Source: a virus (lineage: Duplodnaviria; Heunggongvirae; Uroviricota; Caudoviricetes). From it: DNA of 9,241 nucleotides. This document shows positions 1-9,241 of this stretch, one piece after another (positions within the stretch are counted from its first letter, which is position 1; each line of letters opens with the position of its first letter). The position numbers were made by a program, and so were the translations under genes. The notes beneath the pieces were generated by a model. That model saw nothing but the letters and a program-made list of their open reading frames with translations. It was not told where the DNA came from and did no database searches. The stretch is taken from the IMG/VR virus record IMGVR_UViG_2585427789_000003, positions 1-9,241 of that record. One strand, 5' to 3'.

Positions 1-1
1 G

Positions 2-1216
2 CGGTTGTTTGATTTCAACAAGCTGGCGATTTACCAGGAGCAGAGCGCATCAAAATTTGAACCGCTTTCCTCGGATGCAAACAACCTGGACGGTCTGAAC
101 ATCCACTGCGCCATTATTGATGAGCTGCATGCACATAAAACCCGCGACGTGTGGGACGTTCTGGAAACGGCAACCGGTGCCCGTCTGCAGTCCCTGTTAT
201 TTGGTATCACCACGGCTGGCTTTAACAAGGAAGGGATTTGTTACGAGCAGCGTGATTACGCCATCAAGGTATTGCGAGGCTATAACAGCGACGTGGAGGG
301 CGCTGTAAAAGACGACTCTTACTTTGCGATCATTTACACGCTCGATGAGGGAGATGATCCGTTTGATGAAACGGTCTGGCAGAAAGCGAATCCGGGCCTG
401 GGCATCTGTAAACGCTGGGATGATCTGCGTCGCCTGGCGAAAAAGGCGAAGGAGCAGGTCTCGGCGCGGGTGAATTTTTTCACGAAACACATGAATGTGT
501 GGGTTACTGCCGAATCTGCCTGGATGGACATGATTAAGTGGGAGAAGTGCGAATACATTGCCCCACGACATGAGCTGAAAACGTATCCCATGTGGGTCGG
601 CGTTGACCTTGCTCATAAGATTGATATCTGTGCGGCGGCAAAACTCTGGCGAACGGATAACGGGCATGTTCATGCCGATTTTAAATTCTGGCTTCCGGAA
701 GGACGGCTGGAACGATGCTCGCGGCAGCAGGCAGAACTTTACCGGAAGTGGGCAGAGATGGGGAAGCTCATCCTGACGAATGGTAATGTTATCGATCATG
801 CTCAGATAAAAAGTGACCTACTGGAATGGATTGGCGGTGAAAACCTCAGGGAACTGGGATTTGACCCGTGGAGCGCAATGCAGTTCAGTCTGGCGCTGGC
901 TGAAGAAGGGATACCGCTGGTGGAAGTTCCGCAGACGGTCCGCAATCTGTCAGAGGCTATGAAGGAAACGGAATCACTGGTCTATGCCGGGCGTTTCCAC
1001 CACAGCAATCATCCGGTCATGAACTGGATGATGTCTAACGTTACGGTAAAACCGGACAAAAACGACAATATCTTCCCGAATAAATCCACGCCGGAAGCCA
1101 AAATCGACGGCCCTGTTGCGCTTTTTACAGCCATGAGCCGCTTTCTGGTAAATGGCGGGGGCGTGAATGACTTTCTGTCCACGCTTGATCCTGATGAGGA
1201 CCTGTTAATTCTGTGA
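2..1216 (+). CDS. Terminase large subunit, 5'-truncated by the window edge (C-terminal part of the ATPase domain plus nuclease domain)
   Basis: The reading frame is open from the window start with no upstream stop, and stops at TGA 1214-1216. A Walker B-like hhhhDE motif (AIIDE) lies at about nt 107-124, so the Walker A must be upstream of the window. An RNase H-like nuclease motif (WVGVDLA, Asp codon 605-607) follows. It sits immediately upstream of the portal gene, the canonical position. Confidence 0.85.
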   Translation, partial: RLFDFNKLAIYQEQSASKFEPLSSDANNLDGLNIHCAIIDELHAHKTRDVWDVLETATGARLQSLLFGITTAGFNKEGICYEQRDYAIKVLRGYNSDVEGAVKDDSYFAIIYTLDEGDDPFDETVWQKANPGLGICKRWDDLRRLAKKAKEQVSARVNFFTKHMNVWVTAESAWMDMIKWEKCEYIAPRHELKTYPMWVGVDLAHKIDICAAAKLWRTDNGHVHADFKFWLPEGRLERCSRQQAELYRKWAEMGKLILTNGNVIDHAQIKSDLLEWIGGENLRELGFDPWSAMQFSLALAEEGIPLVEVPQTVRNLSEAMKETESLVYAGRFHHSNHPVMNWMMSNVTVKPDKNDNIFPNKSTPEAKIDGPVALFTAMSRFLVNGGGVNDFLSTLDPDEDLLIL

Positions 1217-1374
1217 AACAGCTTATTACTGATATGACCGGGCTGATCGGTTTCGGTCTGCTCACTGCTGGCGTTTATCTGTATGCAGGTCTGCCAGCGT
1301 CTCTGATGCTGTCTGGCTGTTTGTTGCTGCTTTATGCACTGGTGGTGTCCATGAGGAGAAAACATGCTTCTTGA
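1213..1374 (+). CDS. Small hydrophobic hypothetical protein (about 53 aa from GTG 1213, or 46 aa from ATG 1234), possibly a two-helix membrane peptide
   Basis: This ORF is below the 60-aa cutoff of the supplied track. GTG 1213 overlaps the terminase stop (GTGA) and has GAGGA about 12 nt upstream. The stop TGA 1372-1374 overlaps the portal ATG at 1364 by 11 nt. The translation (VKQLITDMTGLIGFGLLTAGVYLYAGLPASLMLSGCLLLLYALVVSMRRKHAS) is strongly hydrophobic with a basic C-terminus. It fills an otherwise unexplained 148-bp gap. Confidence 0.4.
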   Translation: MKQLITDMTGLIGFGLLTAGVYLYAGLPASLMLSGCLLLLYALVVSMRRKHAS

Positions 1375-2590
1375 TGCTCTGTTTCGCAGTGAGCCTCTGG
1401 AAAATCCCTCGGTTCCGGTAACCGGAGAGGCCGCTGAGACGGATAATATTTTTGCCCGGGATGTGTATGTCAGTCCTGAAACTGCGATGAAACTGGCTGC
1501 GGTGTATTCCTGTATCTATGTCCTGTCTTCCAGCCTTGCCCAGATGCCGTTGCATGTTATGCGCAGGCACAATGGGAAGGTTGAGCCCGCACGCGATCAT
1601 CCGGCGTTTTATCTGGTTCATGATGAGCCCAATACCTGGCAAACCAGTTACAAATGGCGCGAACTGAAGCAACGTCACATCCTTGGCTGGGGGAATGGGT
1701 ATACCTGGGTGAAACGTAATCGTCGCGGTGAAGTCATATCCCTGGATTGCTGTATGCCGTGGGAAACGACGCTGATGAATACTGGTGGCCGATACACCTA
1801 CGGTTTGTACAACGAATATGGGGCGTTTGCGATCAGCCCCGACGATATGATCCACATCCGTGCGCTGGGTAATAATCAGAAGATGGGGCTGAGTCCGATT
1901 ATGCAACATGCCGAAACAATAGGCATGGGGATGAGCGGTCAGAAATACACAGAAAGCTTCTTCAGCGGTAATGCCCGTCCGGCGGGGATAGTATCCGTTA
2001 AAAGCGGACTCAATAAGGACAGCTGGGGCTGGCTTAAAGATCAGTGGCAGAAGGCATCGCAGGCGTTACGCAGCCAGGAAAACAAAACCATGCTGCTGCC
2101 AGCCGATCTGGATTACAAGGCACTGACTGTGTCGCCAGTTGACGCCCAGATCATTGACATGATGAAACTGAACCGTTCAATGATTGCCGGTATTTTCAAT
2201 ATTCCTGCGCACATGATTAATGACCTCGAAAAAGCCACCTTCTCCAATATTTCTGCGCAGGCGATTCAGTTTGTCCGCTACACGATGATGCCGTGGGTGA
2301 CGAACTGGGAGCAGGAGCTTAACCGTCGCTTGTTTACCCGCGCTGAGTTAGCCGCCGGGTATTACGTCAGGTTCAATCTGACGGGGCTTTTACGCGGAAC
2401 TCCGCAGGAGCGCGCGCAATTCTATCACTTCGCTATTACCGATGGATGGATGAGCCGTAATGAGGCCCGCGCATTCGAGGATATGAATCCGGTTGAAGGG
2501 CTGGATGAGATGCTGGTAAGCGTGAACGCTGCTAACCCGGCAGGAGATTTTAAGCCCCCAAAAAACGATGAGGGAAAAACCAATGAATGA
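1364..2590 (+). CDS. Portal protein (HK97-family type)
   Basis: A 408-aa ORF with GAGGAG 4 nt upstream of ATG 1364. Its size and its position between terminase and prohead protease are canonical for a portal. The stop TGA 2588-2590 overlaps the protease start region. Confidence 0.88.
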   Translation: MLLDALFRSEPLENPSVPVTGEAAETDNIFARDVYVSPETAMKLAAVYSCIYVLSSSLAQMPLHVMRRHNGKVEPARDHPAFYLVHDEPNTWQTSYKWRELKQRHILGWGNGYTWVKRNRRGEVISLDCCMPWETTLMNTGGRYTYGLYNEYGAFAISPDDMIHIRALGNNQKMGLSPIMQHAETIGMGMSGQKYTESFFSGNARPAGIVSVKSGLNKDSWGWLKDQWQKASQALRSQENKTMLLPADLDYKALTVSPVDAQIIDMMKLNRSMIAGIFNIPAHMINDLEKATFSNISAQAIQFVRYTMMPWVTNWEQELNRRLFTRAELAAGYYVRFNLTGLLRGTPQERAQFYHFAITDGWMSRNEARAFEDMNPVEGLDEMLVSVNAANPAGDFKPPKNDEGKTNE

Positions 2591-3185
2591 CCGTGAAATC
2601 CGTTGTTACAGCGGTGAGGTGCGTGCTGAGAGGCATGACGATAACCCGGCGCACATTATCGGTTATGGATCGGTGTTTGACTGTCGTTCTGAGCTGATAT
2701 TCGGCTCATTCCGCGAAATCATCCGGCCCGGCGCTTTTGACGATGTGCTTGGTGATGATGTACGCGCACTGTTTAACCACGATCCTAATTTTATTCTTGG
2801 GCGTAGTGCAGCAGGCACGCTGAATCTTTCAGTTGATGAGCGCGGATTACGCTATGACATCCAGGCTCCGGAGACACAGACCATTCGTGATCTGGTGCTG
2901 GCCCCGATGCAACGTGGAGATATTAACCAGTCATCTTTCGCTTTCCGTGTCGCCCGTGACGGTGAGGAGTGGTATCAGGATGAGGATGGGGTTGTTATTC
3001 GCGAGATAACCCGCTTTTCCCGTCTGCTGGATGTCAGTCCTGTGACATATCCTGCCTATCAGGAGGCTGACTCGGCTGTTCGCTCCATGAAAGCATGGCA
3101 GGAGGGGCGCAACAGCGGCGCGCTACAGAAAGCCATTAATCAACGTATGGCGCGTGAACGCGTCCTGACCCTTCTTAACGCGTAA
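2583..3185 (+). CDS. Prohead maturation protease (HK97 gp4-like, peptidase S78 family)
   Basis: A conserved FNHD motif (His codon 2778-2780) and a QSSFAF motif (Ser codons 2931-2936) resemble the His/Ser catalytic dyad of HK97-type prohead proteases. I chose ATG 2583 because AGGGA lies 7 nt upstream; the in-frame ATG at 2568 lacks a Shine-Dalgarno sequence and is the alternative. The gene sits between portal and capsid. Confidence 0.85.
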   Translation: MNDREIRCYSGEVRAERHDDNPAHIIGYGSVFDCRSELIFGSFREIIRPGAFDDVLGDDVRALFNHDPNFILGRSAAGTLNLSVDERGLRYDIQAPETQTIRDLVLAPMQRGDINQSSFAFRVARDGEEWYQDEDGVVIREITRFSRLLDVSPVTYPAYQEADSAVRSMKAWQEGRNSGALQKAINQRMARERVLTLLNA

Positions 3186-3195
3186 AGGAAATATC

Positions 3196-4425
3196 ATGAA
3201 ACTGCATGAACTGAAACAGAAACGTAACACTATCGCAACTGACATGCGCGCCCTGAATGAAAAAATTGGTGATAACGCATGGACGGAAGAGCAGCGCACT
3301 GAGTGGAACAAAGCAAAATCCGAACTGGAAGCGCTTGATGAACGAATTGCACGCGAAGAAGAACTGCGTCGTCAGGATCAGGCGTACATTGAAAGCAATG
3401 AGGAAGAGCAGCGTCAGAATCTTGATCCGGAAAACAATCCACAACAGGATGAGAAACGAGCTCAGGTTTTTGATAAGTGGATGCGTCACGGTGCCAGTGA
3501 GCTGACATCAGAAGAACGAAAGGCGTTGCGTGAACTTCGTGCCCAGGGCGTAGCTCAGGATGAAAAGGGCGGATATACCGTACCAGAAACATTCCTGGCG
3601 AAAGTTGTTGAGAAGATGAAATCCTACGGTGGCATCGCCAGTGTGGCGCAGATTCTTACCACTTCTGACGGTCGCACTATGGAGTGGGCAACAGCTGATG
3701 GTACTTCCGAAGTTGGTGTTCTGCTGGGCGAAAATGAAGAAGCCGGTGAAGAAGACACCGATTTCGGTATGGGAAGCCTTGGGGCGCTCAAAATGACATC
3801 GAAAATAATTCGTGTGTCTAATGAGTTGCTGCAGGACAGTGCGATCGATATGGAAGCTTATCTTGCCCGTCGCATTGCTGAACGTATTGGTCGTGGTGAA
3901 GCCCGTTATCTGATTCAGGGGACGGGGGCTGGTACGCCTAAACAACCCAAAGGGCTGGCAGCATCAGTGACCGGCACAACACAGACTGCCGCGGCAAATG
4001 CGGTGAAGTGGCAGGAAATTCTGGCTCTGAAACACAGCATTGATCCTGCATATCGTCGCGGACCGAAATTCCGCCTGGCGTTTAACGATAATACGCTGAA
4101 ACTGATCAGTGAGATGGAAGACGGTCAGGGACGCCCTTTATGGTTGCCGGATATTGTTGGTGTGGCACCTGCTTCAGTGTTGAATGTACCGTATGTCATT
4201 GATCAGGAAATTGATGATATCGGGGCGGGTAAAAAATTCATGTTCTGTGGTGACTTTGATCGCTTCATTATCCGTCGTGTGCGATACATGATTCTTAAAC
4301 GTCTGGTTGAGCGTTACGCAGAATATGATCAGACCGGTTTTCTGGCCTTCCATCGTTTTGACTGTATCCTGGAAGACACCTCTGCCATTAAAGCGCTGGT
4401 GGGGAAAGGTAGCGTTGGTGGTTGA
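3196..4425 (+). CDS. Major capsid protein (HK97-fold) with an N-terminal charged coiled-coil delta/scaffolding domain
   Basis: A 409-aa ORF with AGGAA 5 nt upstream of ATG 3196. The N-terminal ~120 aa are rich in E/R/K/Q heptad-like sequence (for example EALDERIAREEELRRQDQAYIESNEEEQRQ), typical of a delta domain removed by the upstream protease. The gene directly follows the protease gene and is followed by terminator-like hairpins. Confidence 0.9.
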   Translation: MKLHELKQKRNTIATDMRALNEKIGDNAWTEEQRTEWNKAKSELEALDERIAREEELRRQDQAYIESNEEEQRQNLDPENNPQQDEKRAQVFDKWMRHGASELTSEERKALRELRAQGVAQDEKGGYTVPETFLAKVVEKMKSYGGIASVAQILTTSDGRTMEWATADGTSEVGVLLGENEEAGEEDTDFGMGSLGALKMTSKIIRVSNELLQDSAIDMEAYLARRIAERIGRGEARYLIQGTGAGTPKQPKGLAASVTGTTQTAAANAVKWQEILALKHSIDPAYRRGPKFRLAFNDNTLKLISEMEDGQGRPLWLPDIVGVAPASVLNVPYVIDQEIDDIGAGKKFMFCGDFDRFIIRRVRYMILKRLVERYAEYDQTGFLAFHRFDCILEDTSAIKALVGKGSVGG

Positions 4426-4446
4426 TTAGTCTTTTTACGTACTACA

Positions 4447-4471
4447 GCACGCCGCGTAATGCGGTTTTTTT
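4447..4471 (+). terminator. Putative intrinsic terminator or attenuator downstream of the major capsid gene
   Basis: A short GC stem (CCGC 4452-4455 pairing with GCGG 4461-4464, loop GTAAT) is immediately followed by a run of seven T (4465-4471), 27 nt after the capsid stop codon. The stem is short, so this is probably a partial terminator. Confidence 0.45.
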
Positions 4472-4493
4472 GTGCCCGCTTTCTGGCGGGCAC
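4472..4493 (+). promoter_or_regulatory. Perfect 8-bp GC-rich inverted repeat (stem-loop) abutting the ribosome-binding site of the next gene
   Basis: GTGCCCGC (4472-4479) and GCGGGCAC (4486-4493) are exact reverse complements separated by a 6-nt loop (TTTCTG). The repeat ends one nucleotide before AGGAGG (4494-4499) and ATG 4504. No T-tract follows, so it is not a classic terminator. Confidence 0.4.
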
Positions 4494-4503
4494 AGGAGGT
4501 TTT

Positions 4504-4827
4504 ATGCTGTTAAAAATGGAAGAGATTAAGCTTCAGCTTCGTCTGGATGATGATTTCTCTGATGAAGATGAGTTGCTTGAACTACTTGGGAAGGCCGCTC
4601 AGAGTCGTACGGAAAACTTCCTTAACCGTAAGTTGTATGCAACCGCAGATAACAGGCCTGCGGATGATCCTGATGGGCTTGTGATATCTGATGATGTGAA
4701 GCTGGCGCTTCTGCTACTTGTCAGCCATTTCTACGAAAACCGCTCAACGGTTACAGACGTTGAGAAAATGGAGTTGCCAATGAGTTTTAACTGGTTGGTT
4801 GCTCCTTATCGCCTTATACCACTATGA
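4504..4827 (+). CDS. Head-tail connector / head completion protein (phage gp6-like family)
   Basis: A strong AGGAGG sits 4 nt upstream of ATG 4504. The track's longer start at 4459 would read through the hairpins and has no Shine-Dalgarno sequence. The product is about 107 aa, acidic at the N-terminus (LRLDDDFSDEDELLELL), and is the first gene after the capsid, consistent with gp6-like connector proteins. The stop overlaps the next start (ATGA at 4824-4827). Confidence 0.65.
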   Translation: MLLKMEEIKLQLRLDDDFSDEDELLELLGKAAQSRTENFLNRKLYATADNRPADDPDGLVISDDVKLALLLLVSHFYENRSTVTDVEKMELPMSFNWLVAPYRLIPL

Positions 4828-5234
4828 AAATTCGTCAGGCGCAGACCAGCGCAACCTACATTCTGCCGGACCCCGGCGAACTGAATAAACGCGTCCTGAT
4901 CCGCCAGCGGGTGGATATGCCCGCGGATAACTTTGGCGTGGAGCCTCAATACCCGGTTGCGTTCCGGGCATGGGCGAAGGTTATCCAGACCAGTGCCACC
5001 ACCTGGCAGGAAACCGCGCAGACCGGAGACGCCATCACCCATTACATCACCATTCGCTACCGCCGGGGGATCACTGCTGATTATGAGGTGGTCTGTGGTG
5101 ACAGTGTGTACCGCGTGAAACGTCAGCGCGATCTGAACGGAGCGCGGCGCTTTCTGCTGCTGGAGTGTACGGAGCTGGGCGAATTTACGCAGAGTCACGG
5201 AGGCAACAATGGCGACTTCCTTTTTGCACGTTGA
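4824..5234 (+). CDS. Head-tail joining / head closure protein (SPP1 gp16-like head-tail adaptor class)
   Basis: A 136-aa ORF translationally coupled to the upstream gene by an ATGA overlap. Its size and position, second gene after the capsid, fit the head closure family. Assigned from gene order and general sequence character only. Confidence 0.6.
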   Translation: MKIRQAQTSATYILPDPGELNKRVLIRQRVDMPADNFGVEPQYPVAFRAWAKVIQTSATTWQETAQTGDAITHYITIRYRRGITADYEVVCGDSVYRVKRQRDLNGARRFLLLECTELGEFTQSHGGNNGDFLFAR

Positions 5235-5715
5235 TGTTCAGCAGCCCGCGGAGATGCGCTTTAACCGCGCCCGTGTCCGGCGGGCGTTTGTCACGATTGG
5301 TCAGCGTCATATGCGTGATGCCCGACGGCTGGTGATGCGCCGTGCGCGGTCGGCACCGGGTGAAAACCCCGGTTATCAGACCGGACGCCTGGCTCGTTCG
5401 ATTGGTTACATGGTACCCAGAGCCAGTAAAAAGCGAGCCGGTTTTATGACACGCATTGCCCCTAACCAGCGCAACGGGAAGGGGAACCGGATGATCTCTG
5501 GTGACTTCTATCCGGCGTATCTGTTTTTTGGTGTCCGGGGAGGAGCAAAACGTCGTCGTAGTCATCATCGTGGTGCATCTGGTGGCAGCGGCTGGCGGCT
5601 GGCTCCACGTAATAACTTTATGGTGGAAACGCTTGAAAAGAACCGCAGCTGGACACGCTATTTTCTGGCGCGGGAATTACGTAAATCACTGAAGCCGGAG
5701 CGACGACGCAGATGA
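5209..5715 (+). CDS. HK97 gp10-like tail-component / neck protein
   Basis: GGAGG (5199-5203) lies 5 nt upstream of ATG 5209. The region PGENPGYQTGRLARSIGYM matches my recollection of the conserved core of HK97 gp10-family proteins. The protein is very basic, with Arg-rich stretches. It overlaps the upstream gene by 26 nt. Confidence 0.65.
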   Translation: MATSFLHVDVQQPAEMRFNRARVRRAFVTIGQRHMRDARRLVMRRARSAPGENPGYQTGRLARSIGYMVPRASKKRAGFMTRIAPNQRNGKGNRMISGDFYPAYLFFGVRGGAKRRRSHHRGASGGSGWRLAPRNNFMVETLEKNRSWTRYFLARELRKSLKPERRRR

Positions 5716-6272
5716 AACTGACGCCTGTTATTGCTGCGCTGCGTGCCCGCTGCCCGTATTTTGAAAACCGGGTGGCAGGCGCGGCCCAGTTCAAAAATCT
5801 GCCGGAGGTCGGAAAGCTGAGACTCCCGGCGGCGTATGTGGTACCGGGGGATGACTCTCCGGGAGAAAACAAAAGCCAGACCGACTACTGGCAGGAGCTG
5901 AAAGAGGGCTTCTCCGTGGTTGTCATACTGAGTAACGGGCGTGATGAGCGCGGTCAGTTTGCCTCGTATGATGTGGTGGACGATGTCCGGCAGATGCTCT
6001 TTAAGGCCCTGCTGGGCTGGAACCCGGAAGCGTGCGGTAACCCGATTACCTATGACGGCGGCACGCTGCTGGATCTGAATCGTCATGAGCTGATTTATCA
6101 GTTCGATTTTTCGGTCATCAGTGAGCTGACCGAAGACGATACCCGCCAGCAGGATGACCTGAACAGTCTGGATGAACTGCAAACGCTGGCGATTGATGTT
6201 GATTATCTCGAGCCCGGTAACGGGCCTGACGGCGATATCGAACATCACACCGAAATAACCCTTCCTTCCTGA
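5712..6272 (+). CDS. Putative tail terminator / tail completion protein (Mu gp37-like position); function inferred mainly from synteny
   Basis: A 186-aa ORF with an ATGA start/stop overlap with the upstream gene. It lies immediately upstream of the small DUF2635-like ORF and the sheath gene, where contractile-tail phages encode the sheath terminator. The C-terminus is acidic. Confidence 0.5.
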   Translation: MKLTPVIAALRARCPYFENRVAGAAQFKNLPEVGKLRLPAAYVVPGDDSPGENKSQTDYWQELKEGFSVVVILSNGRDERGQFASYDVVDDVRQMLFKALLGWNPEACGNPITYDGGTLLDLNRHELIYQFDFSVISELTEDDTRQQDDLNSLDELQTLAIDVDYLEPGNGPDGDIEHHTEITLPS

Positions 6273-6280
6273 GGATCCTC

Positions 6281-6451
6281 ATGTTTGTCAAACCTGTTAA
6301 AGGGCGGTCAGTGCCTGACCCTGCCCGCGGCGACCTTTTGCCCGCCGAAGGGCGAAATGTTGACGAGAACAACTACTGGCTGCGCCGTGAAGCAGCGGGT
6401 GATATCCGGCGCGTGAATAAAAAGGTGAATACCGATGACGATAAGCTTTAA
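6281..6451 (+). CDS. Small conserved phage protein (56 aa), DUF2635-like, typically found just upstream of Mu-type tail sheath genes
   Basis: This ORF is absent from the supplied track because it is under 60 aa. ATG 6281 has GAGGA 5 nt upstream, and the stop TAA 6449-6451 overlaps the sheath start by 17 nt. The translation is MFVKPVKGRSVPDPARGDLLPAEGRNVDENNYWLRREAAGDIRRVNKKVNTDDDKL. I recall a short protein with this character immediately upstream of sheath genes in Mu-like tail modules. Confidence 0.55.
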   Translation: MFVKPVKGRSVPDPARGDLLPAEGRNVDENNYWLRREAAGDIRRVNKKVNTDDDKL

Positions 6452-7931
6452 CACCATTCCGTCGAATACGCTGGTTCCGTTGTTTTATGCGGAAATGGAT
6501 AACCAGGCGGCGAATACTGCACAGGACAGCGGAGCATCGCTGCTGATTGGTCATGCCAATAACGGTGCAGAGATTGTTGCCAACAGTCTGGTACTGATGC
6601 CGTCGGCAGACTATGCACGCCAGATTTGTGGTGTGGGAAGTCAGCTGGCGCGTATGGTCGAGGCTTATCGCCAGACTGACCCGTTTGGCGAGCTGTATGT
6701 GATTGCCGTTCCGGAAGCCACAGGCGCGGCGGCAACGGTTACGCTGACGGTGACCGGGGCGGCAACCGAAACCGGCACGGTGAATGTGTATGTGGGACGT
6801 ACCCGCGTGCAGGCACCGGTGACTAACGGCGATAACGTCACGATGATTGCCAGCAGTATCCAGGATGCCATCAATGCCGTTCCGACTCTGCCGTTTACGG
6901 CTTCATCTTCGGCAGGCGTGGTCACACTGACCGCGCGTCATAAGGGGCTTTGCGGGAATGAAATTCCTGTCAGCCTCAATTACTACGGCTTTGGTGGGGG
7001 CGAAGTGCTGCCAGCGGGCGTACAGATTGCCGTGGCGACGGGGACCGCCGGAACGGGCGCTCCGGTTCTCACCGGCGCGGTGGCTGCAATGGCGGATGAG
7101 CCGTTTGATTATATCGGCCTGCCGTTCAGCGACACGGCCTCCGTTAACACGCTGGTGACCGAGATGAACGATACCAGCGGTCGCTGGAGCTATGCGCGTC
7201 AGCTGTATGGTCATGTGTATACGGCAAAGATCGGCACACTGTCAGAACTGGTGAACGCAGGTGACCAGTTTAACCAGCAGCACATTACCCTGGCGGGGTA
7301 CGAAAAAGAAACCCAGACGCCTGCCGACGAGCTGGCAGCCAGCCGTACCGCCCGCGCGGCAGTGTTTATCCGCAACGATCCGGCACGTCCCACGCAGACC
7401 GGTGAGCTGGTGGGTATGCTGCCTGCGCCGAAGGGGAAACGGTTCACGATGACCGAGCAGCAGACCCTGCTGTCTCATGGCGTGGCAACGGCGTATGTCG
7501 AAAGCGGGGTGCTGCGCATTCAGCGTGATGTCACCACGTACAGGAAAAACGCTTACGGGGTTGCGGATAACAGCTACCTCGACAGCGAGACGCTGCATAC
7601 CAGCGCGTATGTACTGCGCAAACTGAAATCCGTCATTACCAGTAAGTACGGGCGTCACAAGCTTGCCAGTGACGGTACCCGCTTTGGTCCCGGTCAGGCG
7701 ATTGTCACCCCGGCGGTGATCAAAGGGGAACTGCTGGCAACCTACCGTCAGCTCGAGCGTGCGGGGATCGTGGAAAACTACGAACTGTTCAAGCAGTACC
7801 TGGTTGTGGAGCGTGATGCCAGCGATCCAAATCGCCTGAACACGCTGTTCCCGCCTGACTATGTTAACCAGTTGCGTGTCTTTGCCGTGGTTAACCAGTT
7901 CCGTCTTCAGTATTCAGAGGAGTCTGCATAA
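6435..7931 (+). CDS. Contractile tail sheath protein (Mu gpL-like)
   Basis: A 498-aa ORF with AAGGTG 7 nt upstream of ATG 6435. Its size is typical of Mu-type sheath proteins and it is immediately followed by a ~118-aa tube gene through a TAATG overlap. Confidence 0.85.
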   Translation: MTISFNTIPSNTLVPLFYAEMDNQAANTAQDSGASLLIGHANNGAEIVANSLVLMPSADYARQICGVGSQLARMVEAYRQTDPFGELYVIAVPEATGAAATVTLTVTGAATETGTVNVYVGRTRVQAPVTNGDNVTMIASSIQDAINAVPTLPFTASSSAGVVTLTARHKGLCGNEIPVSLNYYGFGGGEVLPAGVQIAVATGTAGTGAPVLTGAVAAMADEPFDYIGLPFSDTASVNTLVTEMNDTSGRWSYARQLYGHVYTAKIGTLSELVNAGDQFNQQHITLAGYEKETQTPADELAASRTARAAVFIRNDPARPTQTGELVGMLPAPKGKRFTMTEQQTLLSHGVATAYVESGVLRIQRDVTTYRKNAYGVADNSYLDSETLHTSAYVLRKLKSVITSKYGRHKLASDGTRFGPGQAIVTPAVIKGELLATYRQLERAGIVENYELFKQYLVVERDASDPNRLNTLFPPDYVNQLRVFAVVNQFRLQYSEESA

Positions 7932-8287
7932 TGGCCCGTATCGGGGGAACCTGTTATTTCAAAATTGACGGTCAGCAGCTATCGCTGACCGGCGGCATTG
8001 AGGTGCCCATGAACAGGACGGTCAATGATGACATCATCGGCCTGGACGGTTCAGTGGACCGCAAGGAAACTCACCGTGCGCCTTATGTCAAAGGGACCTT
8101 CAAGGTGCCGAAGAATTTTCCGGTGAGCAAAATCACCTCGTCTGATGAGATGACAATCACTGCCGAGCTGGCGAACGGTCAGGTCTATGTACTATCGTCT
8201 GCCTGGCTGCACGGCGAAGCGAACCATAATGCCGAAGAAGGCACGGTTGATCTTGAGTTCCACGGTGAAGAAGGGGATTACCAGTAA
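7931..8287 (+). CDS. Tail tube protein (Mu gpM-like)
   Basis: A 118-aa ORF whose start overlaps the sheath stop (TAATG at 7929-7933). It lies directly downstream of the sheath and upstream of the tail assembly chaperone, the canonical order for contractile tails. Confidence 0.8.
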   Translation: MARIGGTCYFKIDGQQLSLTGGIEVPMNRTVNDDIIGLDGSVDRKETHRAPYVKGTFKVPKNFPVSKITSSDEMTITAELANGQVYVLSSAWLHGEANHNAEEGTVDLEFHGEEGDYQ

Positions 8288-8556
8288 TGAAAGAGCTTGA
8301 GTTAAAGAAACCGATTACTGCTCATGGCGAGACACTCTCCGTACTGGAGTTTGATGAGCCCACCGGGAAGGATGTCCGCGAGCTGGGGTATCCCTACCAG
8401 ATGAATCAGGATGAGTCTGTCAGACTTCTGGCGCATGTGGTGTCGAAATACATTGTGCGGCTGGCGAAAGTGCCGCAAAGCTCTGTCGACCAGATGTCTC
8501 CGGCAGACCTGAATGCAGCGGCGTGGCTTGTGGCTGGTTTTTTCCTCCAGGCCTGA
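8287..8556 (+). CDS. Tail assembly chaperone, short (unshifted) product (gpG/gpE-like)
   Basis: An 89-aa ORF lying between the tube gene and the tape measure gene. It ends with GGT TTT TTC CTC CAG GCC TGA, which includes a slippery heptamer, and an overlapping ORF in the -1 frame runs to the tape measure start. Confidence 0.75.
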   Translation: MKELELKKPITAHGETLSVLEFDEPTGKDVRELGYPYQMNQDESVRLLAHVVSKYIVRLAKVPQSSVDQMSPADLNAAAWLVAGFFLQA

Positions 8557-8705
8557 CGGCTGAATACCTCACTGATCGCTTCTTTGACTGCGCCAGCTAC
8601 TGGCGCATTAATCCCTTCGAATTGCTGAATATGTCGATCAGTGAAATTCCCTTGCTGGTCAGTCAGGCAAACAGGATAGAGCAGGAGAAACGCACACATG
8701 GCTGA
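8287..8705 (+). CDS. Tail assembly chaperone, frameshift-extended product (gpGT/gpE+E'-like) made by a programmed -1 ribosomal frameshift
   Basis: The zero-frame ORF 8287-8556 and the -1-frame ORF that is open from 8523 to TGA 8703-8705 overlap across the heptamer T TTT TTC (8538-8544). The predicted fusion junction reads ...WLVAGFF/PPGLTAEY.... The conserved position between tube and tape measure genes matches the lambda G/GT and P2 E/E+E' paradigm. Confidence 0.6.
8538..8544 (+). other. Slippery heptanucleotide (T TTT TTC, X XXY YYZ type) for the -1 programmed frameshift
   Basis: Read directly from the sequence: zero-frame codons are GGT TTT TTC (8536-8544). The -1 frame stays open from here to 8705, whereas the zero frame stops 12 nt downstream at 8554-8556. 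Confidence 0.55.
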
Positions 8706-9241
8706 ATTTGAGCTTAAGGCGTTGATCACCGGTGTCGACAGGCTTTCTCCCGCGCTGTCGAAAATGCAAAAGAAAATCCGGGGATTTAAACGCCAGGCGG
8801 AAGATGCGTCACAGGGTGGGCTGGCGCTTGGTGGCGGACTGGCAGCGGGTTTGACGCTTTCCCTGAAATCTTATGCCGATCAGGAAAACGCCGCCACCGG
8901 GCTGAAAGTCGCCATGATGGATGCGAACGGCGAGATTGGAAAGCGCTTTCAGGACATCAATAAACTGGCTATTGGCCTGGGTAACCAGCTACCCGGTACA
9001 ACGGCTGATTTCCAGAACATGATGCAGATGCTGGTGCGTCAGGGGATCCCGGCAGAAAACATTCTTGGCGGTGTGGGTAAAGCGACAGCTTATCTTGCGG
9101 TACAACTGAAAAAAACACCGGAAGCGGCTGCCGAGTTTGCCGCAAAGATGCAGGATGCTACCGGAACGGCGTCAGAAGACATGATGGGGCTGTTCGACAC
9201 TATCCAGAAGGCGTTTTATCTGGGCGTTGACGATACCAACA
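8698..9241 (+). CDS. Tail tape measure protein, N-terminal part (3'-truncated by the window edge)
   Basis: ATG 8698 overlaps the stop of the frameshift product (ATGGCTGA). The frame is open with no stop for 181 codons to the window end. The translation (MAEFELKALITGVDRLSPALSKMQKKIRGFKRQAEDASQGG...) is helical and Ala/Gln/Lys-rich, typical of tape measure N-termini. It is missing from the supplied track, presumably because no stop codon falls inside the window. Confidence 0.8.
   Translation, partial: MAEFELKALITGVDRLSPALSKMQKKIRGFKRQAEDASQGGLALGGGLAAGLTLSLKSYADQENAATGLKVAMMDANGEIGKRFQDINKLAIGLGNQLPGTTADFQNMMQMLVRQGIPAENILGGVGKATAYLAVQLKKTPEAAAEFAAKMQDATGTASEDMMGLFDTIQKAFYLGVDDTN

Follow-up and report, generated by a model that had tools for sequence, protein, structure and literature searches.

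A conserved small gene for a predicted two-helix membrane protein between the terminase and portal genes of SfV-like Escherichia coli prophages

In SfV-like and related Enterobacterales prophages a small open reading frame (ORF) lies between the gene of the large terminase subunit (TerL) and the portal gene, and its products have been grouped as phrog_7105, a family of unknown function. The member of this family described here is located at positions 1213..1374 of a stretch of 9,241 nucleotides (IMG/VR virus record IMGVR_UViG_2585427789_000003, positions 1 to 9,241), which is called the window below; all features with a strand are on the + strand. The window is the late-gene region of an Escherichia coli prophage and carries the 3' part of TerL, the portal gene and the genes of an HK97-family prohead protease and the major capsid protein, after which come connector proteins and the first part of a module for a contractile tail. 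The small ORF is already catalogued: RefSeq entry WP_000811487.1 is this very protein, labelled as hypothetical protein, it is a member of phrog_7105, and several GenBank phage records annotate it too, which contradicts an earlier sequence-only reading of this DNA in which it was called unannotated. Comparison with the phrog_7105 proteins of SfV-like and related prophages revealed no difference, as the length, the position after TerL and the overlaps with both neighbouring genes are the same.

A second family, phrog_502, is found in the same slot between TerL and portal. Its members include L37 of phiP27 (labelled 'membrane protein'), ORFs of SfI, SfII, SfIV and ST64B, gp3 of phiKO2, and YmfR (b1150, 60 aa) of the e14 cryptic prophage of E. 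coli K-12 MG1655 (locus L105, 7550-7732), where ymfR is flanked by the pseudogenes aaaE and beeE, remnants of a terminase and a portal gene respectively. In published expression data, an SOS-inducing treatment raises ymfR along with the lytic genes of e14. Like the window ORF, the proteins of this family (YmfR, phiP27 L37) occupy the TerL-portal slot, belong to the same size class (60 aa), are predicted to form a two-helix hydrophobic hairpin and carry a basic residue after helix 2. Unlike it, they contain the motifs YPPAG (P28-x-G30) and CLxWSW (C38-L39-x-W41-S42), which neither the window protein nor the phrog_7105 alignment shows, they lack the D7 of the window family, and they are paired with another TerL tail and another portal lineage; the YmfR-type ORF also starts 11 nt after the TerL stop, whereas the window ORF overlaps TerL. 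Cross-hits between the hidden Markov models (HMMs) of the two families are weak (E = 1.3e-6 and 5e-4; window protein against phrog_502, E = 1.3e-6). The hhalign comparison runs end to end over 47 columns (P = 0.003) with a probability of only 9.8%, and with the phrog_7105 HMM the YmfR members scored above all 1000 composition-matched shuffles, the reverse test being weak. Distant homology of phrog_7105 and phrog_502 is plausible from these sequence comparisons.

Lambda gpW is a soluble protein, and all that it shares with the window peptide is a gene position between those of the large terminase subunit and the portal. In several phage records (H79, H83, H88, H92) the phrog_502 slot proteins are labelled 'head-tail joining protein W'. 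This label looks like a positional transfer from lambda gpW that ill fits a hydrophobic two-helix peptide. As a name for the slot protein it was rejected as wrong, since the window peptide has a grand average of hydropathy (GRAVY) of 0.99, is a predicted membrane hairpin and has no Pfam match.

Judged by its conservation across phages and by its frame-specific constraint, the small ORF is a genuine phage gene, far beyond what chance would produce. From the ORF list and the letters of the window, it encodes 53 aa (VKQLITDMTGLIGFGLLTAGVYLYAGLPASLMLSGCLLLLYALVVSMRRKHAS) with a GTG start read as Met. This GTG (1213-1215) overlaps the TerL stop TGA (1214-1216) as GTGA (1213..1216), which is ATGA in most homologues. 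At its other end the ORF overlaps the portal start by 11 nt (1364..1374), with the portal ATG at 1364 and the ORF stop TGA (1372-1374) lying across portal codons 3-4. The sequence-only reading had described an ORF filling the gap between TerL and portal and overlapping both, and this is borne out by the ORF list, the letters and the same overlaps in relatives; its GTGA start and 11-nt portal overlap stand as claimed, and the spacing from TerL stop to portal start is corrected from 148 to 147 nt.

The same ORF of 159-162 nt was found in phages and prophages of E. coli, Shigella (SfV), Klebsiella, Morganella, Edwardsiella and Salmonella. The ATGA/GTGA overlap with TerL is present in all of these homologues, and the 11-nt portal overlap in all except Salmonella phage F1055 (159 nt, with a shorter portal overlap). 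A profile search yielded at least 198 clusters at 90% identity, nearly all of 52-53 aa and from Enterobacterales wherever named, while IMG/VR contained 331 relatives. The match of the window protein to the phrog_7105 HMM (E = 9.4e-20) covers residues 1-52 on profile positions 1-52 of 52, and the features of the family are all present in it, namely the length of 52-53 aa and D7, G13, G20, L23 and G35. The genomic context is also that of the family, with a PF03354/PF20441 TerL directly upstream and a PF04860 portal downstream. Among 54 diverse members, residues M1, D7, G13, G20, L23 and G35 are invariant, and K2, G10, G15, Y22, G26, L31, A42, L43 and A46 are conserved in at least 90%. Searches with the protein gave no match in Pfam, only a spurious match in NCBIfam (E = 0.1), no family at E <= 1 among the PADLOC defence models and no usable match among PDB sequences.

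The ratio of nonsynonymous to synonymous substitution (dN/dS) was calculated by the Nei-Gojobori method on codons 3-46, outside both overlaps, as the median of 45 pairs from 10 loci. It amounted to 0.22 for the small ORF, compared with 1.26 and 2.27 for the other two frames of the same DNA, and the variable columns were distributed 34/22/43 over the three codon positions. In a second set of 7 loci, omega was 0.39 for the small ORF and 0.067 for the portal. The comparison of synonymous and nonsynonymous change that had been proposed as a check on the sequence-only reading is hence in agreement with it and shows purifying selection that is specific to this frame. Stops or frameshifts in relatives, which that reading had named as counter-evidence, were not encountered in about 100 related loci save one that is truncated by a rearrangement (L088); the ORF is intact in every other related locus fetched. 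Absence of the spacer in relatives had been named as well; related loci carry the intact ORF, and it is in more distant phages such as HK97 that the spacer is missing. On the whole these checks speak for a real gene. In L088 (1-243, IMGVR_UViG_2778261163_000008; protein P0004) the prophage breaks off within codon 5 of the small ORF, to which an unrelated N-terminus MQAEILLTLKLQQKLFADPRRISLLKHIALSG, presumably ModE-like, is fused in frame, and an 81-aa chimera results. In the chromosome of Symbiopectobacterium purcellii NZ_CP189882.1 (L018-L022), a prophage region that encodes the same small-ORF protein occurs five times.

Two start codons had been considered earlier, GTG 1213 and ATG 1234. The first is retained with its 53-codon product, because homologues carry ATG exactly where the window has GTG and because residue 8 is not conserved; M1 and K2 are kept. 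At residue 8 (M8, ATG 1234) the homologues have V, A, L or I, and ATG 1234 was ruled out as a start for this reason. In the SfV reference (L002, NC_003444.1) the small ORF (2289-2450) is intact yet unannotated. The SfV portal is annotated at 2392-3666 from an upstream GTG (2392) and so overlaps the small ORF by 59 nt, and portal homologues begin at M/V-LLDALF, 16 codons downstream of the annotated GTG. The small ORF was missed in SfV records because the portal was started there at this upstream overlapping GTG.

On the evidence of synteny, phages of this group regularly encode a small protein with two transmembrane helices immediately downstream of TerL. The sequence-only reading had held that a membrane peptide is not expected in a packaging and portal module, and this view is not sustained, as such proteins recur syntenically in the form of phrog_7105 and of phrog_502 (YmfR, phiP27 L37). 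Remote members of phrog_7105 from metagenomes and Pragia are all located directly after a PF03354/PF20441 TerL; one of them (L010) combines the small ORF with another type of portal, a protease of the S49 family and a gap of 127 nt. Other E. coli prophages encode a TerL body approximately 95-100% identical to that of the window, with the tail switched about 19 codons before the TerL stop. After the switched tail follow a 60-aa two-helix ORF of phrog_502 (E = 8.8e-26) and then another portal lineage. HK97 and prophage L015 have no ORF in this slot; there, the stop of TerL directly overlaps the start of the portal gene. Because both lack any such gene, the small ORF is accessory for this type of head and motor.

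The surroundings of the small ORF are mosaic. The C-terminal tail of TerL, DFLSTLDPDEDLLIL with the stop codon (1169..1216), accompanies the phrog_7105 ORF and is swapped where the slot holds a YmfR-type ORF or is empty. The last 15 residues of TerL (DFLSxLDPDxDLLxL) are near-constant in company of the phrog_7105 ORF, with TerL bodies otherwise only 38% identical (SfV type). Compared with the common E. coli type that has the same small protein (L106), the window is 100% identical over positions 1081-1476 and about 75% identical beyond them. Towards the SfV type (L007), identity is about 50% before 1184, about 70% over 1201-1500 and about 100% over 1501-3060. From these alignments the portal of the window (1364-2590) is chimeric, with a crossover at about codons 38-46, and the recombination joint is placed at 1477..1500 (without strand), with 100% identity to L106 on its left and about 100% identity to L007 on its right. 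The first 38-45 or so codons of the portal gene agree fully with L106, whereas the remainder of the gene and the protease have about 100% identity to the SfV type (L007). Of the 1168 E. coli records that matched, only 2 reach an identity of 99% or more over 1000-1600.

The TerL tail, the small ORF and roughly the first 40 residues of the portal are passed on as one block, and the surroundings are exchanged. This co-inheritance could point to co-adaptation or, equally, to simple linkage at the joint of the packaging and head modules, the comparisons being few. The swap of the TerL tail fits a tail that contacts the portal, as far as sequence can indicate. The idea of the TerL tail as a portal-binding element reportedly comes from work on lambda gpA. 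The papers on the HK97 motor that were checked are silent on which TerL residues contact the portal.

The predicted structure of the small protein was obtained with AlphaFold2 from the 54-sequence alignment. It is a helical hairpin with helices at residues 2-25 and 27-51 (mean predicted local distance difference test score, pLDDT, 84.5), and hydropathy agrees. The highly hydrophobic product ending in MRRKHAS that the sequence-only reading had noted is evident from the GRAVY value and from two hydrophobic stretches, and its suggestion of a small membrane peptide with one or two helices matches the two-helix membrane hairpin predicted here. The predicted transmembrane helix 1 (approximately residues 8-25, 1234..1287) is rich in Gly, Thr and Ala and moderately hydrophobic, with G10, G13, G15, G20, Y22 and L23 conserved. 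The turn residue G26 (1288..1290) between the helices is conserved in at least 90% of sequences, and predicted transmembrane helix 2 (approximately residues 27-46, 1291..1350) is strongly hydrophobic, with L31, G35, A42, L43 and A46 conserved. In our own helical-wheel calculation from the conserved positions, G10, G13 and G20 fall on one face of helix 1, and L31, G35, L38, A42 and A46 on one face of helix 2. A pattern of small residues on one face, as modelled here, is as expected of tightly packed membrane helices. The charged K2 and the C-terminal Arg and Lys residues suggest that both ends of the modelled hairpin are cytoplasmic. A fold search of BFVD with the AlphaFold2 hairpin returned nothing at E <= 0.001, a helical hairpin being too simple for this result to be informative.

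Translation signals around the small ORF were located by sequence inspection. A possible weak Shine-Dalgarno sequence, GAGGA (1196..1200), precedes the GTG by 12 nt. Homologues do not conserve it, and because of this the small ORF is probably initiated by termination-reinitiation at GTGA/ATGA. The portal Shine-Dalgarno sequence AGGAG (1354..1358), 5 nt before the portal ATG, falls within the two Arg codons AGG AGA of the small-ORF frame; in homologues its place is taken by AGGGGG or AGGAGG, which encode Arg-Gly or Arg-Arg. Furthermore, the last three codons of the small ORF overlap portal codons 1-4. The basic C-terminal tail, which the sequence-only reading had pointed out, is largely a by-product of the portal Shine-Dalgarno sequence and start codon and hence a weak sign of design. 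The conserved overlaps point to reinitiation from TerL into the small ORF and to a hand-over from there to the portal.

A search of 900-1700 found no sigma-70-like promoter on the + strand and no terminator. The fraction of guanine and cytosine is 0.494 for the small ORF, 0.513 for TerL and 0.518 for the portal, so that no compositional deviation is seen. The small ORF is assigned to the late operon and not to the independently transcribed morons, because it has no promoter or terminator of its own and its base composition is like that of its neighbours. The induction of its slot analogue ymfR along with the e14 lytic genes is in keeping with this assignment. The window contains no Rfam family, and the RNA fold of 1190-1400 is no better than that of shuffled sequences (z = -1.09); an explanation at the RNA level was ruled out on these two grounds. 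A programmed +1 frameshift fusing the small ORF to the portal was also rejected as a general mechanism, since a portal-frame TGA at 1352-1354 leaves only about 20 nt for it, and inspection of the sequence showed no RF2-like slippery codon and an unfitting Shine-Dalgarno spacing. In one database protein, P0022, a frameshift joins approximately the first 40 residues of the small-ORF product to the N-terminal part of the portal. This frameshift lies further upstream, P0022 comes from one contig as a single cluster representative, and a sequencing error is possible.

The explanation that we favour, at somewhat better than even confidence, is that the small ORF is a true late gene, belonging to an SfV-like prophage whose head module is of the HK97 type, and that it encodes a translationally coupled inner-membrane hairpin which acts within the membrane in an accessory late function. 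Ribosomes ending TerL would most likely restart at the overlapping GTGA, and those ending the small ORF would pass to the portal start, 11 nt upstream of the ORF stop. To judge from the overlaps, the peptide would be made late, in step with TerL and the portal. Inserted in the inner membrane, the 53-residue product would form a helical hairpin whose two termini probably face the cytoplasm. Selection appears to have kept the small-residue faces (G10/G13/G20 and G35/A42/A46), D7 and the turn Y22-L23-x-x-G26. An action inside the membrane is proposed because it is there that the conserved residues lie, because very little of the chain would reach into the cytoplasm and because the translation signals of the portal determine the C-terminus. 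Such an action could consist of self-association or of binding to a host inner-membrane protein, and lysis timing, membrane energisation or a block of DNA entry are candidate accessory roles. We take the peptide to be part of neither the capsid nor the packaging motor.

Several points weigh against this explanation. The omega of the small ORF is several-fold above that of the portal, which indicates a constraint that is only moderate. The hairpin topology is a prediction, and some homologues have Lys or Arg in the loop, which weakens the positive-inside argument. We infer the translation of the ORF from its evolution, and the functional part of the explanation is inference as well; literature searches on small membrane proteins between terminase and portal, on phiP27/SfII and on ymfR brought up no functional study or experiment on the family or on YmfR. 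Finally, the tight linkage to TerL and portal would fit a role in assembly or packaging equally well.

Such a role is the most serious alternative, rated as rather unlikely. In it, the hairpin would be a membrane tether or assembly factor that anchors or nucleates portal or procapsid assembly, or holds TerL, at the inner membrane. A precedent for a membrane protein in a head module is T4 gp40, a membrane-associated factor for assembly of the gp20 portal; the T4 genome layout is unrelated and the likeness to the window peptide is by role only. The tether would account for the invariable place of the ORF between TerL and portal and its coupling to both, for its co-inheritance with the flanking ends of both proteins, the C-terminal tail of TerL and the N-terminus of the portal, where the TerL body and the remainder of the portal change, and for the occupation of the same slot by two different families; it is also in line with the small ORF not being moron-like. 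It is difficult to reconcile with HK97 and L015, which use related TerL, portal and protease without such a gene, and with L010, which keeps the ORF despite its different portal and protease type and its 127-nt gap. The protein itself offers little to a binding partner in the cytoplasm, with only about 7 residues at each end, those of the C-terminus being set by the portal Shine-Dalgarno sequence and start, while the conserved residues sit inside the membrane helices. For HK97-type head assembly, no membrane step is known. A broader proposal, in which phrog_7105 and YmfR/phrog_502 would form one ancient class that links the packaging and portal machinery of HK97-like temperate phages to the inner membrane, or times an envelope event to packaging-gene expression, is regarded as doubtful.

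A holin-like, pinholin-like or antiholin peptide, with two transmembrane helices and both termini inside, could tune permeabilisation in step with the packaging genes, and is considered improbable. The resemblance to class II holins such as pinholin S21 68 consists in two transmembrane helices, a Gly-rich and weakly hydrophobic first helix and a basic C-terminus. In the window peptide, too, helix 1 is Gly/Thr/Ala-rich and far less hydrophobic than helix 2, and the direction of late transcription is shared with a lysis cassette a few kb upstream. This cassette, however, already provides the prophage with two holin-family genes beside the endolysin, and no endolysin is adjacent to the small ORF: the holin-family genes and an M15 peptidase are located about 3.5-4.5 kb upstream (L001 1670-2707), and HNH, TerS and TerL genes lie in between (L001). 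The window peptide further differs from class II holins in being shorter and outside the lysis cassette, it has no Pfam or NCBIfam holin match, and the M1/M8 pair that might mimic a dual start is not conserved. All class II holins that we know of so far are longer than 53 aa.

Many small inner-membrane proteins of temperate phages prevent DNA from entering, and the small ORF might in principle be a moron that the prophage expresses for superinfection exclusion or defence, in the manner of HK97 gp15. PHROGs files phrog_502 under 'moron, auxiliary metabolic gene and host takeover', a placement that rests only on the 'membrane protein' label. The small ORF, on the other hand, has no + strand promoter or terminator of its own, no compositional deviation and zero intergenic space, it is fixed and intact in all clade members examined and not patchy, and no PADLOC model matches it, so that this explanation is held to be very improbable. 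Scarcely credible is a pure translational relay, in which translation of the ORF would pass ribosomes on from TerL to the portal and set the ratio of the two, and the peptide would be functionless, for although both ORF ends overlap the neighbours and the portal Shine-Dalgarno sequence lies inside the ORF, the constraint at the amino-acid level, the invariant residues and the fixed length of 52-53 aa speak against it, HK97 and L015 couple TerL and portal by direct overlap without a relay ORF, and neither unusual RNA structure nor an Rfam family was found. Both the moron and the relay are contradicted by the sequence evidence.

Two further observations concern other parts of the prophage. In the window, the overlapping ORFs 8287-8556 and 8523-8705 are in different frames and come just after ORF 7931-8287, which follows the tail sheath gene; within their overlap lies the T-run GGTTTTTTCC (about 8537-8546). 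By sequence they look like the usual frameshift pair of tail-assembly chaperones. Upstream of the prophage lysis cassette with its two holin-family genes and M15 peptidase, tRNA-Ile and tRNA-Arg genes are located (L001 1229-1478).

The region of the small ORF is widespread in E. coli. As a 601-nt query, window positions 1000-1600 are 100% identical to E. coli E300010 (NZ_CM128601.1) and were matched in 1166 of 5426 complete E. coli genomes, 630 of which cover at least 80% of the query; approximately 250 further matches of the SfV type, with 60-80% identity, also span the small ORF. As it stands, the finding is another conserved small phage membrane protein, with a practical yield in annotation fixes (the SfV portal start and the 'gpW' labels). 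The small ORF makes a well-defined knockout target, and the sister protein of the slot, YmfR, is a named E. coli K-12 gene. If the peptide did couple packaging or portal assembly to the membrane, or time an envelope event, a step would be added to the textbook assembly pathway, and this membrane-coupled head or packaging step would have been overlooked because HK97 itself is without the gene.

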